Positions 3,705 through 20,693 of a stretch of 42,426 bases of DNA are shown here, in pieces. The notes under the pieces are model-generated. The model saw nothing but the letters and a program-made list of their open reading frames with translations. It was not told where the DNA came from and searched no databases. This DNA is from a virus (taxonomy: Duplodnaviria; Caudoviricetes): the IMG/VR virus record IMGVR_UViG_3300049210_000044, positions 1-42,426 of that record; one strand, given 5' to 3'. A program made the translations under genes and the position numbers. The stretch's first letter is position 1. Each line of letters begins with the position of its first letter.

Positions 3705-3904
3705 CGCTTCCACTTGCGGTAGTGGACCCGCTGATCGCCCCACGGAATCCACCGGTTCGAGTCCCGTTGGCGGACCATCATCCGGGCCTGGATGGTGATC
3801 GGTGTGGGGGTTGTCCACGCGTGGTCACCGCACCCGTGGAACCTCTGCGGAGTCCCGCACCGGCTACAGCTGTAGGGCTCTCGGCTGTCCCAGTAGACAG
3901 TCAT
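3701..3904 (-). CDS. Small Zn-finger-like protein
   Basis: CSRCG...H...H pattern; ATGA-coupled. Confidence 0.65.
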   Translation of the reverse strand: MTVYWDSREPYSCSRCGTPQRFHGCGDHAWTTPTPITIQARMMVRQRDSNRWIPWGDQRVHYRKWKR

Positions 3905-4407
3905 GCGATCGCTCCGAACAGCAGGGCCCCGACCTCGTTGGCGCCCTGGGCGAGAGGTACCGCCGCAAGACCAGCCACCCCGGATGAGGTGCCGAGACAC
4001 AGCCCGCAGATCATGCCCCGGGTGACGACGGTCTTCCAGGGCTTCTTACGGCGTATCGCGAACACGACCACGGTGAGCAGGACTACCAGGGCGGACCCGG
4101 TGGTGGTGAGGGGCAGGTACGCCCCGTGAGAGACCTGCCCCGGCTTGACTCCTACTCCGAGCCACAGGGCCGCGTCCCCGAGCCAGTTGAGGGCCCACAG
4201 GGCCGTATCGAACCCCCACCCGATAAGTCCCATCACCGAGAGGATCCCGAGGGCCCCGTACGCCCACGCAAGGAGGAACGGGGCGAGATCCAGGGCGAAC
4301 GGAACGGGCTTCTTCTGGAGTTGCTTCCACCCCGGATACCACTCGATCAGGTGGTTGAGGAGAACGCCGAGGCCGACAGTGACCCCGCCGAGGGTCGCCC
4401 AGATCAT
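3901..4407 (-). CDS. Multi-pass membrane protein
   Basis: Start MIWATLGG; about 4 hydrophobic segments; ATGA-coupled. Confidence 0.75.
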   Translation of the reverse strand: MIWATLGGVTVGLGVLLNHLIEWYPGWKQLQKKPVPFALDLAPFLLAWAYGALGILSVMGLIGWGFDTALWALNWLGDAALWLGVGVKPGQVSHGAYLPLTTTGSALVVLLTVVVFAIRRKKPWKTVVTRGMICGLCLGTSSGVAGLAAVPLAQGANEVGALLFGAIA

Positions 4408-4664: not shown

Positions 4665-5374
4665 GACGTCTCCCCGAGGTAGGTGAGCAGCCGACCGGCC
4701 CGGTCCTGACCGATACCGGCGTACTTCTTGAGACCCCGGACGCTCGGGCGCGTACTCGCCACGTCGCACTCAGCCAAGTACGCCTGGGCGCTGGGCAGGT
4801 GCACCGCGTCCTCCGCACTCAGCGGGATGGACCCGGCGGGTACAGGTGCGGGTGCGTGCACCCGCTCGATGTACTCGCCCAGGTACGCGGGCGGCAGGGG
4901 CGGGAGTGCGGGTGCACTCGGCACAGGTGCAGCGGGTGCGGGTGCACTCGGGTGCACCTGCTCCGCCAGGAACTCCGGCAGCCACTCGGCATCGGCGCCA
5001 GGTACGTCAGGTACGTGTACCTCGGGGTGCTTCACCGCACCCGAGTGCGACCTGAGTACGTGGCCCCGCCAGACCAGGATGGGTACGAGTGCACCCACGG
5101 CCGAGTACAGGCCCCAGTGGAGGGGAAGTACGCCCGCCGTGACCAGGATGGAGGCGACGTTGGCCGCGACCATGACGAACACGGCGGGAAGTACGTCCTT
5201 GTGCTTCTGGAGTGCACGGATGACGTAGAGGTCGAGTGCGCCGGGTACCGCACTCGCCACAGCCCAATTGAGGCCGGTGGCGAGTGCGAGGGTGTACTCG
5301 GCGTGCGCTGTGGCTACGAGTGCGCACCCGAGCTGCGCCCACAGGATCCAGTCCTGTCGAGTACGCGTATTCAC
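4661..5374 (-). CDS. DUF2637/SpdA-like membrane protein with C-terminal winged helix
   Basis: About 4 N-terminal TMs (TAHAEYTLA..G...AVPGALD), Pro/Ala linker, C-terminal PSVRGLKKYAGIGQDRAGRLL resembling the FtsK-gamma wHTH. Confidence 0.75.
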   Translation of the reverse strand: MNTRTRQDWILWAQLGCALVATAHAEYTLALATGLNWAVASAVPGALDLYVIRALQKHKDVLPAVFVMVAANVASILVTAGVLPLHWGLYSAVGALVPILVWRGHVLRSHSGAVKHPEVHVPDVPGADAEWLPEFLAEQVHPSAPAPAAPVPSAPALPPLPPAYLGEYIERVHAPAPVPAGSIPLSAEDAVHLPSAQAYLAECDVASTRPSVRGLKKYAGIGQDRAGRLLTYLGETS

Positions 5375-5818
5375 GGCCGCACCACGGTGAAGGTGCAGGT
5401 GCACTCGGAGTAGGTGCACCCGTCCTTACCGTGCGAGTACACGAGCCGGTGGGTGCAGGTGCACTCGGCAGTGGGTGCGGGCTTGGGGCTGGACTCCACC
5501 AGCGGAGGAGCGATGTACTCGGGTGCACGCCAGGTACGGGGACAGGTGCACCCGTCGGCAGCGGTGCACCCCTGGTGCTTACGCTCCGACCAGAGCAGGT
5601 GCAGCGCCATCGGATGCCCGCAATCGGGGCACGGCGAGTACGGTCCGAGTTCAGTCGGCTGGCACGGGTCACCGGGCTGCCCGTGGCTGTCGGACCAGGG
5701 ACCCCCACAGACACCGCACTCAGGTGCGGTCGGGGGCTCCTCTGCGGCAGCTACAGGTGCGTCCGCCCCGTGGGCGAAGTGCACCCGCCCGTTGAACTTG
5801 GCACAGGTGCAGTACTCG
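4752..5818. repeat. Dense dispersed (C)RRGTRC / GTGCAC motif field
   Basis: About 65 hand-counted RRGTRC hits on both strands in 1.07 kb, versus about 5 expected from base composition. Confidence 0.9.
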
Positions 5819-6600: not shown

Positions 6601-6664
6601 TCCTTTCTTCGGTTGTGGGATGCCTCCGGGCGGGAGTCGAACTCGCCCTGCGACCATCGGAGGC
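6601..6664 (-). ncRNA. Mini tRNA-like leader element, copy 1, with RBS
   Basis: Minus strand GCCTCCG-ATGGTCGCAG-GGCGAGTTCGACTCCCGCC-CGGAGGC-ATCCCACAACCGAAGAAAGGA; near-identical to 7623-7685. Confidence 0.7.
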
Positions 6665-7622: not shown

Positions 7623-7685
7623 TCCTTTCTTCAGTTGTGGGAGTGCCCCGGGCGGGAGTCGAACCCGCCCTGCGACCATCGGGGC
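7623..7685 (-). ncRNA. Mini tRNA-like leader element, copy 2, with RBS
   Basis: Minus strand GCCCCG-ATGGTCGCAG-GGCGGGTTCGACTCCCGCC-CGGGGC-ACTCCCACAACTGAAGAAAGGA; canonical T-arm GCGGG-TTCGACT-CCCGC. Confidence 0.7.
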
Positions 7686-16175: not shown

Positions 16176-16937
16176 ATGAACTTCGACAGCATCAAGACCG
16201 AGCGGGTCTGGGCGAACACCAACTCCAACACCACCACAGTCCACGCCTTCCTCACCAACAAGTCGGCGGGCGCCCTCTGCAACAGTGGAATCCGCCCCAA
16301 CGACTCGGTTCGCAGCGGTGACACGAACCTGATGACCACGGTGGAGCGCGACCGCACCACAGTCCCCACCAACTACTGCGGGCGCTGCCTCACCCGACTG
16401 GTGAACCTGGTTGACCGTCAGGCCGCGTCCATGATGCCGAGCACCGGCGAGGGTGACTACCTGCCCCCCGCCCAGGAGACGCTGGCTCAGACCGAAGAGA
16501 CCTCGGTGACCGTCACCGAAGAAAAGGAGAACAGCATGACCAACCCGAACATCACGCCCGAGGTCATCAAGGCGCTTCAGGTCCTGCGGAACCGATCCGC
16601 CGTAGGTCCGGTCCCGCAGGACCTGATGTCCGCCATCAATACGCTCGACAACGCGGGCATCTTCTCCGCCATCGATGAGGCCACCGGCTACGACATCGAC
16701 CCGGCGCCGGAGCGGGTCAGCAAGTGCACCTGCCCCGCCAGTCGGGTCGCCTTCCCCACCAAGCTGGGGAACGACATGCACGCGGCCAACTGCCCCGGGG
16801 ACCCCGCTGTCTGGGGTGACCTGGCCTTTACGACCGCCGAGGCTCTGGAAAACGAGCGCCTGACGGCTCAGCACAACGCCCGGTTGGCCATGCTCCGCCG
16901 GGGAACCCACCAGAGCGGAGGAACCGACCGTGGATGA
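16176..16937 (+). CDS. Hypothetical protein with H..ALC..CxxC module
   Basis: Start MNFDSIK after GGGAG; VWA...VHAF...ALC...YCGRC; possible internal start MTNPNIT after AAGGAG. Confidence 0.7.
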   Translation: MNFDSIKTERVWANTNSNTTTVHAFLTNKSAGALCNSGIRPNDSVRSGDTNLMTTVERDRTTVPTNYCGRCLTRLVNLVDRQAASMMPSTGEGDYLPPAQETLAQTEETSVTVTEEKENSMTNPNITPEVIKALQVLRNRSAVGPVPQDLMSAINTLDNAGIFSAIDEATGYDIDPAPERVSKCTCPASRVAFPTKLGNDMHAANCPGDPAVWGDLAFTTAEALENERLTAQHNARLAMLRRGTHQSGGTDRG

Positions 16938-17049
16938 GCAGTCCATCAGGGCCGAGAACGAAGCCAGGCTCGCTGAGCTCCGGCGTCAGACGGACGAAGC
17001 GATCGCAGCGGCCAAGCGGGCGCTGGAGCAGGCCGGAGGCGGAGAGTGA
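16930..17049 (+). CDS. Small coiled-coil protein (39 aa)
   Basis: RBS GGAGG; MDEQSIRAENEARLAELRRQTDEAIAAAKRALEQAGGGE. Confidence 0.6.
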   Translation: MDEQSIRAENEARLAELRRQTDEAIAAAKRALEQAGGGE

Positions 17050-17210
17050 TGGCTGACACCGAGGCACCCAAGTACCCGGTCATCGTCGTCACCGACGCGG
17101 GCGCCATGAACGGCACGGTCAACATCCACGACCAGTCCAGCGGCCAGACCGTGAGCAACGTCCCGGTCTCGGACTACCTGGACACGATCCGCCAGATGAA
17201 CCAGAAGTAG
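17049..17210 (+). CDS. Hypothetical protein (53 aa)
   Basis: TGATG-coupled; MADTEAPKYPVIVVTDAG...IRQMNQK; high GC3. Confidence 0.65.
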   Translation: MADTEAPKYPVIVVTDAGAMNGTVNIHDQSSGQTVSNVPVSDYLDTIRQMNQK

Positions 17211-17217
17211 AAACCCT

Positions 17218-17256
17218 GAGAGGGACCGCCCCCGGTGAAGTGGGGCGGTCCCTCTC
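17218..17256 (+). terminator. 15-bp stem-loop terminator
   Basis: gagagggaccgcccc-cggtgaagt-ggggcggtccctctc. Confidence 0.75.
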
Positions 17257-17278
17257 CCGTCAGAGTAGAGGAGAGATC

Positions 17279-18862
17279 GTGGAAAAGAAGAGCTGCCCCG
17301 AGTGCGGCGAGATGTTCGTTCCGCTCACCGGTGGCGGTCTGCGGGCGCACGGACCCGTGAACGCGCGCTGTGCTCAGGACCCCGCCAACCGCAAGGGGAC
17401 CCGGGCGTGCGCAGGCTGTGACAAGGCGTTCATCCTGACGGACGCCAACGAGATCCCGGCCCACGAATCGGCCCCCGGGGTGATGTGCTCGCAGGCGGCG
17501 GAGGAGTTCACCACGGTTCCGCTCCCGAGCATCAAGGGGCCGTGGTTCGGAGCTAACTACGCGGGCGAGTGCAGCGGTTGCGGAGATGGGATCTACGAAG
17601 GCGACCGCATCCGTTCCGACGGGATGGGCGGGTACGAGGGCGAGTGCTGCGAGCACGTTGACGACGAGCCCCGGCCGGTATCCGGCCCTGCCGTTCAGGA
17701 GCTGTGCGGGATCGAGCCGGTCGCGGCCCCGGAGGAAGACGAGTTCGCTGACCCCACCACCTCCCAGCCCAAGCTGAACGTCTCTGGACAGCCCGAGGCC
17801 CCCAGGGACTATCTGGGCAGGTACGCCATCCGGGACGCGGGTACGGGCGAGTTCAGGTTCTTCAAGAACGGCAATGTCCAGGGGATCACCCGGGTCACCA
17901 CGTTCAACAAGGCCGCGTCCGACTCCAAAGCCATCAACGACTGGAACCGGCGCAACATCGTCATCGGCGCCGCTCTGCGGGGCGACCTGGTCATCAAGGC
18001 CCGGGGTCTGACGCACGACGCTCACCGTGAGGAGCTGGACCGCCTGGCCAACGAGTTCGAGACCGCTGCTGGTTCCAAGGTGGCGTCCTCTATCGGGACC
18101 GACGTGCACGAGATCACCGAGCGCATCGACGCCGGAATCTTGTGGGTGGAGGACGCTCCGGTTCAGTACCGGGATCAGCTGCGGCTGTACGAAACCGTCC
18201 TTCAGGAGGCAGGGTTCGAACCGGTGCCCGGGATGATCGAGCGAGTCACCATGGTCACCGAGTACGGCGGAGTGGCGGGGACGTTCGACCGGGTCTACTA
18301 CCACCGGCCCTCGGGGACGTACGTGGTAGGGGACGTCAAGACCGGCAAGACCATGAAGTTCGCGATGGACGAGACGCAGTGCCAGGAGTGGCTGTACGCC
18401 CACGGGATCAATCAGAACGGCGTGTACGACATCAACACGAAGCAGTGGGAAGAGCCACACACACTGGCCGACGTGAACGAGCGGCTGGTGGTTCGGGAAG
18501 ACGTCGGCCTCATCATCCACATGCCGGTCCAGGGGCCCGACGCAGGCAAGGTGATTCTTCTGAAGACCGACCTGGTGGCGGGGAAGGCCTACGCGGAGCT
18601 GTGCGGCTCTGTGAGGGACTGGCCCAAGGGGAAGGTGGTGCCGTGGACCTGGGAGCCTGAGGCGGCCGTGGAAGCCCCGCAGGAGCCGGTGGCCGAGCGT
18701 GCCTGGTACCTGGAATTCGCCGCTGTCACGAACTCCGAGGAAGCACGACAGCTCTGGTACGAGATGACCGCAGCCCACCCGGATGCCACTCAGGACTTCC
18801 TGGACACGATGGCTGAGATCGGGCGGGCGGCTCTTGAAGTTGCCTCCGTTGACAGGGGTTGA
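17279..18862 (+). CDS. PD-(D/E)XK exonuclease with N-terminal Zn-binding modules
   Basis: RVTTF, GTDVHEITE, VAGTFDRV, VGDVKTGK; several N-terminal CxxC. Confidence 0.85.
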   Translation: MEKKSCPECGEMFVPLTGGGLRAHGPVNARCAQDPANRKGTRACAGCDKAFILTDANEIPAHESAPGVMCSQAAEEFTTVPLPSIKGPWFGANYAGECSGCGDGIYEGDRIRSDGMGGYEGECCEHVDDEPRPVSGPAVQELCGIEPVAAPEEDEFADPTTSQPKLNVSGQPEAPRDYLGRYAIRDAGTGEFRFFKNGNVQGITRVTTFNKAASDSKAINDWNRRNIVIGAALRGDLVIKARGLTHDAHREELDRLANEFETAAGSKVASSIGTDVHEITERIDAGILWVEDAPVQYRDQLRLYETVLQEAGFEPVPGMIERVTMVTEYGGVAGTFDRVYYHRPSGTYVVGDVKTGKTMKFAMDETQCQEWLYAHGINQNGVYDINTKQWEEPHTLADVNERLVVREDVGLIIHMPVQGPDAGKVILLKTDLVAGKAYAELCGSVRDWPKGKVVPWTWEPEAAVEAPQEPVAERAWYLEFAAVTNSEEARQLWYEMTAAHPDATQDFLDTMAEIGRAALEVASVDRG

Positions 18863-18886
18863 CACAGGGCCCCGAGCCACTAGAGT
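18849..18886 (+). promoter_or_regulatory. Promoter upstream of the structured non-coding region
   Basis: TTGACA-GGGG-TTGACA-N16-TAGAGT. Confidence 0.65.
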
Positions 18887-18960
18887 TCTCGGTGTCAGGG
18901 GCAGAGTGAGAGCGCGGTAACCCTGACTGGGTGAACGACCTCGGCGGAGGCTAAACGTGG

Positions 18961-19027
18961 AGAGTGGGGTATGGCATTGCCTTAACCGGGTGCACCCGGG
19001 GATGCGGGTTCGAATCCCGTCCACTCA
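18961..19027 (+). tRNA. Degenerate tRNA-like structure (no canonical anticodon loop)
   Basis: Acceptor GAGTGG/CCACTC; T-arm GCGGG-TTCGAAT-CCCGT; central hairpin CCGGG-TGCA-CCCGG; about 5 nt short; no CCA. Confidence 0.5.
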
Positions 19028-19139
19028 CTGCCCGCAGCTGCGATAGGGACTCGCCATTCGAGCCTCTATCAAAGGACTGCCAACCGTTGGGGTTGGGCAC
19101 CCAGCAGAGAGGCTGGCCCGGTCGCACTCCAATGGGCGC

Positions 19140-19174
19140 CCGTCCCCTGCCGACTGAATTCCGGCAGGGGACGG
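19140..19174 (+). terminator. 13-bp stem-loop
   Basis: ccgtcccctgccg-actgaattc-cggcaggggacgg. Confidence 0.65.
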
Positions 19175-19208
19175 TAACCGGAATCGAAACAGGAAACAGG
19201 AGAACACT

Positions 19209-19733
19209 GTGGCTGACTTTGAAGACCCGTTCGCGGACCCGACTCCCAGGGTCTCGGACTTCGCCTCCGCCGACTCGTTCCGGGGACGGCTCATCCTCAT
19301 CGAGCCGGTCAAGGTCGAGCGGAACGTGCCCAAGCAGGCCAACGTTCCGAACGGCCCCACCGGTGACCGGGTCACCGCCACGGTCACCGTGGTGGACGGA
19401 CTCGGCCCGGTCCAGATCTACAGCCAGCGAATCCCCACGGGGAAGTACCTGGAAGGTCCGGAGCACGTCGGTGTCTGGTTCAATCAGGACCAGCTGGCGA
19501 ACGGTCTCCAGACCCTGAAAAAGGACGCGCTCCTGAAGATGGTTCTGTGCCGGATTGACACTCTCAAGCCGGGCACTCCGGCGGGGCAGGGAAACCCCTG
19601 GATCATGAACGCCGCGTCCCCCGAGGACAAGCAGATGGCCCGGGACTTCCTCGCCGGTCGCAGGCTCGCCCAGGCAGCCGCTCCGACCCCCGCGTCCAAC
19701 CCGTTCGGCGGCAGCCCTAAGGCCCCGTTCTAG
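19209..19733 (+). CDS. Putative ssDNA-binding/recombination protein
   Basis: Follows the exonuclease; beta-rich core and flexible C-terminus ending in PF (inference). Confidence 0.5.
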   Translation: MADFEDPFADPTPRVSDFASADSFRGRLILIEPVKVERNVPKQANVPNGPTGDRVTATVTVVDGLGPVQIYSQRIPTGKYLEGPEHVGVWFNQDQLANGLQTLKKDALLKMVLCRIDTLKPGTPAGQGNPWIMNAASPEDKQMARDFLAGRRLAQAAAPTPASNPFGGSPKAPF

Positions 19734-19780
19734 GCTCCCTCTGCGGCGCTCCCCCGACCGGCCGCCGTAGAGGTTGAGAA

Positions 19781-19818
19781 GAGAAGCCCCACCCTTTCCT
19801 GAGGGGGTGGGGCTTCTC
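19781..19818. terminator. Bidirectional terminator between convergent arms
   Basis: gagaagccccaccc...gggtggggcttctc. Confidence 0.85.
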
Positions 19819-19823
19819 GGTGT

Positions 19824-20039
19824 TCACCGCAGGATGCGGGGTTCGTTCCGGTCGCCGGTGAAGCGACCGGCCAGCCCCTCTAGCAGCGCTAGGGCCGCCA
19901 CAGAGCCACTCACGGTCAGGGCGGGTACCCAGTTGAAGGTCAGAACGTTGAACGGCTGTGAGGCGACCGCCAGAGCCGTCAGGGTACCGAGGAACGCACC
20001 GGTTACCTTGGCCGCGAGTCTTCGCAGGTACAGCTTCAC
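19824..20039 (-). CDS. Holin (r1t-like, 2 TM)
   Basis: 71 aa, two TMs, F...NW..AL..S pattern; last gene of the tail operon. Confidence 0.75.
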   Translation of the reverse strand: MKLYLRRLAAKVTGAFLGTLTALAVASQPFNVLTFNWVPALTVSGSVAALALLEGLAGRFTGDRNEPRILR

Positions 20040-20048
20040 GGATCCTCC

Positions 20049-20693
20049 TCAGAACGCGTTGGTCATCTTGAGCAGCAGGATCTTGCGCAGGCCTAGCGCC
20101 CAGTTCGCCACATCCGGCGTGGTGTTGCCCCGCCACTCCAGACTGAAGCAGTCCGTGGTGCCGTTCATGAAGACCGAGGTCAGTCCGGTCTGCATCATGC
20201 GCACGTTGGCGTCCTCAGGGCCGACACCCACGGTGTGGGACATGGCCGCGATCTTCGGCCCGACCGTTCCCGGGGTCGAGGAGTCGTTCTTGTGGATCTC
20301 CAGATCCATGAAGACCAGCGACGCGCTGTGGGTCAGCGTCGGCACCTGAAGGATCCCCACAACCGCGTACACCCCCACCTCGGTCGGCCTGATCAGACGG
20401 ACCCCCGCAGCCTGTGACATCAGCTCCACGTTGCAGGTGTTGAAGTCCGTGGTGTCGAACGGGAGACGGAAGCGGGTCGCACCGAACGGGATGGACAGAT
20501 CGTTGGCCGGGGCCGGAGAGAGGTAGACCCCGGCGCCACGGAACTGAGCGGCCGGTCGCCCCGTGGCGCCCTCGGTCAGCGCGCAGACGTCTGCGTCGAT
20601 GGCCTCGGCGGTCGCCTGAAGCGAGGCCGGAATGTCGGCGGGGTCCGTAGGGACCGCGTACGGGTACGCGCGGTTGGGAGTGGAGCCGGGCAT
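20049..20693 (-). CDS. Minor tail/fiber protein
   Basis: N-terminus TPNRAYPY..DPADIP, beta-rich C-terminal domain; tail module context. Confidence 0.7.
   Translation of the reverse strand: MPGSTPNRAYPYAVPTDPADIPASLQATAEAIDADVCALTEGATGRPAAQFRGAGVYLSPAPANDLSIPFGATRFRLPFDTTDFNTCNVELMSQAAGVRLIRPTEVGVYAVVGILQVPTLTHSASLVFMDLEIHKNDSSTPGTVGPKIAAMSHTVGVGPEDANVRMMQTGLTSVFMNGTTDCFSLEWRGNTTPDVANWALGLRKILLLKMTNAF

Follow-up and report, generated by a model that had tools for sequence, protein, structure and literature searches.

Between two genes of a soil phage lies an unannotated gap occupied by an RNA array, which, as the comparison of relatives indicates, exemplifies a larger system. The array is made up of separable modules in a row, with tRNA look-alikes behind a conserved leader motif and small structured cargos mixed among them. 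The full motif comprises a covarying GRCG-loop hairpin, AAACGUGG, a 6-base pair (bp) acceptor, a T-arm and AC, and occurs 24 times in 20 contigs, including the unit analysed here. Judged by its covariation, this motif is real and conserved, and it was unmatched to any family with which it was compared. The initial annotation had read the region as a single ncRNA of ~285 nucleotides (nt), which the relatives instead break up into modules; it had noted neither the leader motif nor the organisation into a cassette array, and had overlooked that the cargo modules have homologues. While phage accessory cargo has been studied almost wholly as proteins, here a covarying RNA motif without an Rfam family, together with recurring RNA modules, is invisible to gene and tRNA callers.

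Genomic context

The window, meaning the whole 42.4-kb stretch of DNA that was analysed (IMG/VR record IMGVR_UViG_3300049210_000044; estimated complete, ~65% G+C), encodes a primase-polymerase, a helicase, an exonuclease, siphovirus-type structural genes and an endolysin; an integrase was not found among the window ORFs scanned (30 in one scan, 48 in another). The left border of the array is a PD-(D/E)XK-type exonuclease gene (17240..18862, + strand; phrog_466, E 1e-52), with tblastn matches to annotated exonucleases in Streptomyces and Mycobacterium phages. Because the closest cultured relatives of this protein come from actinobacteriophages (Streptomyces, Mycobacterium and Gordonia phages, identity ~31% or less), we infer an actinobacterial host for this soil phage. 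Inside the exonuclease gene, at 18449-18499 of the window, four strains share a replaced segment with nearly identical flanks.

The array occupies the gap between the end of the exonuclease gene (18862) and the start of a 174-aa SSB-like gene (19209..19733, +; phrog_870). The product of the latter is likely an SSB, based on weak OB-fold matches of its structure model (pLDDT 76; best Z 4.7; Foldseek E 0.07, with nothing at E 0.001 in the Foldseek search against the PDB) and on the gene in the corresponding slot of relative L060, which matches phage proteins annotated as SSB. A search of the genome collection for relatives of the 174-aa protein found none.

Ahead of the array is a sigma-70-type promoter (TTGACA-16-TAGAGT, 18859-18886, +), present as first described and, in a promoter scan, the sole promoter-like site in 16500-20200 against 0.2 expected; most relatives and the cultured phages Mischief19 and phiSAJS1 have a matching site at the corresponding place. 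It is followed by a 5' hairpin region (18894..18935, +) containing the previously described GTCAGGG/CCCTGAC stem (18894-18900/18921-18927), in the loop of which six of the seven strains compared carry G18914A. An alternative short CCC-N5-GGG hairpin in this region resembles the first module of relatives. At the far end are a 13-bp terminal hairpin (19140..19174, +) and an A-rich unstructured leader with a ribosome-binding site (19175..19208, +), similar to the leaders of relatives. The terminal hairpin has no U-tract, no + strand terminator was called, and it is likely a stabiliser rather than a terminator; strains X2 and X5 carry the compensatory changes C19150T and G19164A in it, and L019, which has no array, still has a hairpin at this place.

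A conserved leader motif and a tRNA-like unit

Module A (18939..18960, +) is a 4-bp hairpin with a GRCG loop (CCTC/GAGG, 18939-18942/18947-18950, a stem also seen initially) followed by UAAACGUGG. Its search pattern gave 26 matches, from which one duplicate and one copy without a unit behind it (L025) were removed to leave 24 units. Twelve of the 33 columns of module A are invariant, partly by construction of the search pattern, and three of the four stem pairs show double-sided changes across the 24 units. In bacterial genomes, a pattern search gave 36 matches, 35 of them lacking a T-arm and the remaining one being an ordinary tRNA; in viral contigs, eight of ten matches were true and two were chance occurrences in coding DNA.

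The invariant unpaired bases gather at one junction, and a possible 3-bp pseudoknot (RCG:CGU) is compatible with all 24 copies, its pairs being invariant or changed on one side only. This arrangement could reflect a new self-cleaving ribozyme, formed by module A and the acceptor end or by small cargo pseudoknots, which would dispense with host nucleases, and ribozymes that process phage tRNA trailers are known (PMC10879173). We regard a ribozyme as improbable, however, as the core would be very small, none of the pseudoknot pairs has changed on both sides and Rfam scans of the window and 22 related phage loci found no ribozyme family.

The tRNA-like unit (18961..19028, +) has the 6-bp acceptor (18962-18967/19021-19026) and T-arm (19004-19020; 5 bp, with a canonical-tRNA-like TTCRANY loop) that were recognised from the start, as well as small D-like and anticodon-like hairpins, and ends in A19027 C19028. 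The anticodon-like arm (18986-18999) has 5 bp and a 4-nt loop in place of the 7-nt anticodon loop, so that the unit fails a canonical anticodon-loop test (7-nt loop, U33, 5-bp stem) passed by 2 of the 24 units. In every unit, six paired acceptor positions are followed by a mismatch (23 CxA, 1 AxA), a few have an extra junction base and none shows the canonical 7/5 branch of acceptor and T-arm, while the middle ranges from 24 to 117 nt. Across an alignment of 20 units, with the four long ones left out, 94.4% of cells are paired and 11 of 17 pairs have double-sided changes; the covariation score was reached by 0 of 500 shuffles and the pair count by 22 of 500, in a shuffle that ignores relatedness. 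Conservation is confined to the upper half of the tRNA shape, with a freely varying middle. The case stands on this comparative evidence and not on folding energy, since the z-score of the unit with its own leader is weak (-0.74), compared with -4.25 for the whole element and -2.57 without the terminal hairpin.

That weak z-score, and the fact that some units still score as tRNA, would also fit a phage tRNA cluster that is in decay and whose structure is incidental. We consider decay very improbable and largely refuted by the covariation, which takes the form of compensatory changes in module A, the acceptor, the T-arm, the anticodon-like arm of L060, module I and the terminal hairpin; the systematic 6-bp acceptor and the identical modules in distant phages also speak against it. 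Relatives show something other than a normal tRNA decaying without covariation, and the original view of the unit as a non-decoding tRNA mimic finds support, with an acceptor and T-arm that covary and an anticodon loop that is rarely canonical.

The L060 unit is nearly identical to that of the window and differs by a compensatory G-C to A-U change in the anticodon-like arm. Its homologous arm, CCGGA-TGCA-TCCGG, keeps the stem, so that a link proposed initially between the palindrome GGGTGCACCC in this arm and a 'motif cloud' elsewhere in the genome comes down to chance; GGGTGCACCC occurs once in the window, and the cloud consists of GTGCAC in coding DNA at 4-6 kb. The 4-6 kb bins (window 4700-5600) hold 14 of the window's 30 GTGCAC sites, in coding DNA with repeated CTC-type peptide motifs.

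Covariance model R1 scores the window unit at 82.7 bits by construction, recovers the units of the set of 24 plus a few variant leaders and reaches at most 25 bits on the 35 included bacterial pattern-match loci. Its strong matches in five complete relatives are confined to the exonuclease/SSB gap; it found nothing below E 0.07 in five cultured phages and no match at E 0.001 in two actinobacterial genomes (150 candidates scored per genome). ARAGORN, expected from the outset to return a pseudogene or nothing, made no call on the window element and gave noise only under relaxed settings. Rfam likewise gave no gathering-level match for the element (best sub-threshold match, tRNA-Sec at 26 bits), and blastn of the element and of the arrays of two relatives against cultured phages gave short matches the size of a tRNA arm only.

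Further tRNA-like structures were observed in relatives and elsewhere in the window. The units of L024 (2139-2303) and L057 (1630-1807, -) exceed 100 nt and hold two extra T-loop-like hairpins in their middle. Near-canonical units are found in some relatives: L055 has a unit with a CUU loop, and L005 has an ARAGORN tRNA-Gly(UCC) in the corresponding slot (2712-2783), although its base 33 is A. RemusLoopin (L001, 2456-2541) and phiSAJS1 (L107, ~3880-4030), both cultured Streptomyces phages and hence an accessible test system, each have an unannotated tRNA-like gene before a gene start, and the anticodon arm of these genes is swollen. The three T-loop elements counted initially in the window correspond to three well-formed T-arm elements, and a fourth T-arm match, with 4/5 pairs, is antisense in a coding region. 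Two near-identical minihelices (7644-7685 and 6621-6664, both -) consist of an acceptor and a T-arm with a 10-nt linker containing GGUCGCA; they sit just before ribosome-binding sites in a leftward operon, do not match model R1 and are candidate RNase P or 3'-processing sites.

The acceptor end and its register

All 24 units have AC after the acceptor, two bases that had no part in finding them, and none has CCA. The absence of CCA, first pointed out as a special feature, is confirmed, but it is not special: in a control of 36 tRNA genes (30 loci, from 30 of 54 matches) of actinomycete genome G006, position 74 is C in 36 of 36 and CCA is encoded in 9, leaving 27 without it, and 53 of 65 tRNA genes of S. 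coelicolor lack CCA (PMC4681348). AC can therefore be read as the usual way for a tRNA gene to end (A73-C74), with an acceptor that is one pair short. According to the same source, CCA is added post-transcriptionally to most Streptomyces tRNAs and RNase J is present (PMC4681348).

In the A73-C74 register, leader bases U-4 G-3 G-2 face A76 C75 C74, and pairing of the leader with 3' ACCA is reported to be an anti-determinant of RNase P (PMC10731613). G-3 G-2 are kept in 9 of 17 units without module A versus 1 of 36 host tRNA leaders (Fisher p 5e-5, which is inflated because the 17 units were hand-picked and partly related). Counting from the T-arm gives an alternative register with C1xA72 and C73, which shifts the predicted pairing; sequence alone cannot choose between the two. 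The C1xA72 mismatch is reminiscent of initiator tRNA. A 'GU..AC clamp with bulge' model was discarded as not distinctive, its loose version fitting 18 of 36 host tRNA genes.

In the T-arm register, C1xA72 is present in 23/24 units and G2-C71 in 22/24. These positions and the invariant core round the acceptor end would suit module A and the tRNA-like RNA being themselves the effector: an uncharged mimic titrating a host reader of the acceptor and T-arm, which could be RNase P, an initiator-tRNA binder, or a toxin or defence effector directed at tRNA. Arrays with up to three units, and the phenotype that a single viral tRNA-like RNA has of its own in the TMER system (PMC4337559), point the same way. 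Such a role is nevertheless unlikely in our judgement, as it leaves the strict alternation with cargo modules unexplained and no host defence system could be tied to the array. The version put forward initially, in which the unit is a decoy for anticodon nucleases, is disfavoured, since no other part is as poorly conserved as the anticodon arm and the loop is canonical in two units only.

Cargo modules

Cargo module I (19029..19105, +), predicted to be pseudoknotted, begins directly past AC and has homologues in L054, L026 and L021. Comparison of these four sequences by eye yielded four helices (19029-32/19096-99, 19034-37/19077-80, 19042-46/19066-70 and 19086-91/19100-05), in which 88% of cells are paired and 6 of 19 pairs are changed on both sides. 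Of the stems first drawn downstream of the unit, GATAG/CTATC and the 13-bp terminal hairpin are present in the sequence; in place of CCAACC/GGTTGG and CCAGC/GCTGG, the homologues favour a pseudoknot of 19086-19091/19100-19105 with 19029-19032/19096-19099. Module I is adjoined by module D (19107..19137, +), which consists of GAGAGGCUG and a 4-bp stem around GGUCGCA-YUCCAAY and is nearly unchanged in five contigs (L013, L021, L025, L033 (=L100) and L101). Further modules (B, C, E, F, G and H) recur in relatives in varied orders, by an approximate pattern tally, and cargo stems begin at or beside the first base past AC. Rfam scans of 5 and 18 loci matched no module and returned only tRNA-clan matches and one weak plastid match.

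Two of the modules found in relatives have distinctive features. In module F (L021 ~2160-2215; also L006, L023, L025, L033, L054, L057, L101 and L105), a Shine-Dalgarno-like AGGAG and, 7 nt on, an AUG are locked in a stem with their complement; as the reading frame is not conserved, the module may imitate the start of translation or fold into a kink-turn. Of 27 matches to the module F pattern, six were true, all in contigs already in the set. Module H, which immediately precedes the terminal hairpin in L015 and L016, includes a hairpin whose loop contains CUUGUAA and resembles an isolated Thr(UGU) anticodon loop; it is a better candidate for anticodon-nuclease bait than the tRNA-like units.

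Distribution of the array among relatives

Downstream-protein searches gave 4, 7 and 26 loci; once repeats of a contig, identical or nearly so, had been dropped, 21 relatives with a whole gap were compared (L011, L013, L023 and L036, cut by contig ends, and L038 were left out). A promoter-like site matches the pattern in 18 of the 21 gaps, and TTGACA is visible in the other three. Behind the promoter, 17 gaps contain one or more tRNA-like units, interspersed with small structured modules that recur, and 10 contain module A. The other four (L019, L032, L034 and L035) keep the promoter and gene with a short leader only, and the array is thus accessory. Among gene-anchored loci, the distance from promoter to start varies from ~110 to 680 nt. 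More arrays emerged from pattern scans and from another protein search, several of them before a different SSB family (L054, L059, L060 and L063), and in L101 the array is followed by hairpins, with no SSB-like gene nearby.

This distribution bears on whether the region serves as a leader that regulates the SSB-like gene in cis, comparable to the T4 gene 32 operator, with the units as passengers. The array does sit between the promoter and that gene, the layout of a small module (D, C3 or E) before the terminal hairpin and A-rich leader is compatible, and in T4 the pseudoknot to which gp32 binds precedes an unstructured leader (PMC3014915). We give this explanation little chance, however, given the four gaps with gene and promoter but no array, the arrays before a different SSB family, the L101 array and the freely varying module content.

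A cassette difference between near-identical strains

Contigs from seven soil runs were compared with the region. Among 20 runs listed for this DNA there was no RNA run, a result without bearing on its expression. The boundary between module A and the unit is unbroken in six of the seven strains; in the near-identical strain X5, on one 9.2-kb contig, 242 other letters replace base 18961, after which the sequence resumes, so that one cassette differs between near-identical strains. The insert, of which the first 30 letters were seen, starts with C and an acceptor-type strand, continues with sequence resembling unit 2 of L026 and, we infer, ends in a second module A. Two reverse-strand ORFs cross 18960, where X5 has this net 241-base insertion, and coding use of them is unlikely.

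The gap could be an RNA-only counter-defence island, in which a library of small, exchangeable aptamer-like RNAs, acting as decoys or sponges against immune proteins or signals of the host, would ride on purpose-built uncharged tRNA-mimic carriers and be reshuffled between phages. We see this account of the gap as conceivable but doubtful.

A model of processing and end-capping

The reading that we tentatively adopt, and credit with somewhat less than an even chance, is that the tRNA look-alikes act as processing and end-capping signals in a modular ncRNA array that would release structured cargo RNAs; a processing signal was also among the functions suggested in the initial annotation. Transcription of the array would yield a single precursor that extends into the SSB-like gene, and host tRNA 3' maturation would cut after AC, either by RNase Z or by RNase E and exonucleases, followed by CCA completion. 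Leader UGG, in register with the completed CCA, would pair with it and hinder RNase P and charging, and the product would be a stable cargo-plus-mimic RNA and no working tRNA; given RNase J in Streptomyces, structured 5' ends would be useful. Cassettes would be gained and lost via recombination between module A repeats, with the cargos as payload that would most likely bind host factors. If the model is true, it supplies a short list of individually testable candidate RNA effectors.

The conserved place of the promoter, the covarying motif with its free middle, the cargos recurring right after the unit and the X5 boundary insertion are the basis of this array reading. Several observations count against processing. 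A cut signal would not require as many invariant bases as module A has, several units have a degenerate T-loop, 9 of 20 have lost the innermost acceptor pair and cargo stems abutting AC could hinder RNase Z. In addition, some cargo has no flanking unit (I and D in the window), the L025 copy of module A has no unit, near-canonical tRNAs occur in relatives (L005 and L055) and the alternative register would alter the predicted pairing.

Comparison with known systems

YrlA Y RNAs are, like the array, non-decoding, contain a tRNA-like domain and are present in phages (PMC4201824). The array differs in its ordinary open-acceptor topology and in having neither a Ro60 gene nor the GNCGAAN(0-1)G motif: Ro60/TROVE was detected in 0 of 48 window ORFs and 0 of 5 complete relatives (the control matched in 2 of 14), the motif given in that source is absent from 18891-19175 and Rfam scans gave no Y RNA match. 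T4 RNAC and RNAD are likewise small RNAs that a phage encodes in a tRNA region and whose role is unknown, but are fixed genes among working tRNAs, with no cassette exchange described in the available part of the source (PMC3014915). Theta ribozymes resemble the array as structured RNAs directly 3' of a phage tRNA, with a proposed role in trailer processing (PMC10879173); in contrast, the helices of cargo I are not in the HDV order and its partner is not a decoding tRNA. A descriptor of the nested double pseudoknot of theta or HDV-like ribozymes, in which a J4/2 cytosine lies at the tRNA 3' end, matched 1 of 34 regions when run without a positive control, which is chance level.

Irregular-tRNA polycistrons and allo-tRNAs (Mukai et al. 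2017) are also soil-derived clusters of non-canonical tRNA-like sequences, some of which are thought to be non-translational (PMC5389517). They have a 12-bp branch arranged as 8/4 or 9/3, carry anticodons and lie near toxin-antitoxin genes (PMC5389517), whereas the array has a 6/5 branch (6-bp acceptor and 5-bp T-stem, not a long acceptor with a short T-stem), an anticodon arm free to vary and interleaved cargo RNAs. A literature search, with most subscription journals outside its reach, found no description of the motif or of exchangeable actinophage ncRNA arrays. In Fremin et al. 2023 (PMC10690425), the motif and four sample ids are absent from three supplements, and the motif may be among the 10,006 candidates there.

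While the swappable array itself was not found described, its likely mechanism has precedent in the TMERs of gammaherpesvirus 68, in which variable cargo hairpins come after an uncharged tRNA-like element and RNase Z carries out the processing (PMC4337559). The order of tRNA-like element and downstream cargo is matched by the array, in which the two would be co-transcribed. TMERs belong to a eukaryotic virus and are separate Pol III genes with miRNA cargo, whereas the array belongs to a bacteriophage, has one sigma-70-type promoter and a conserved leader motif, and consists of swappable cassettes in tandem whose cargos are of the pseudoknot type. If the processing model is true, the array would be a natural bacterial counterpart both of TMERs and of engineered tRNA-spacer arrays.
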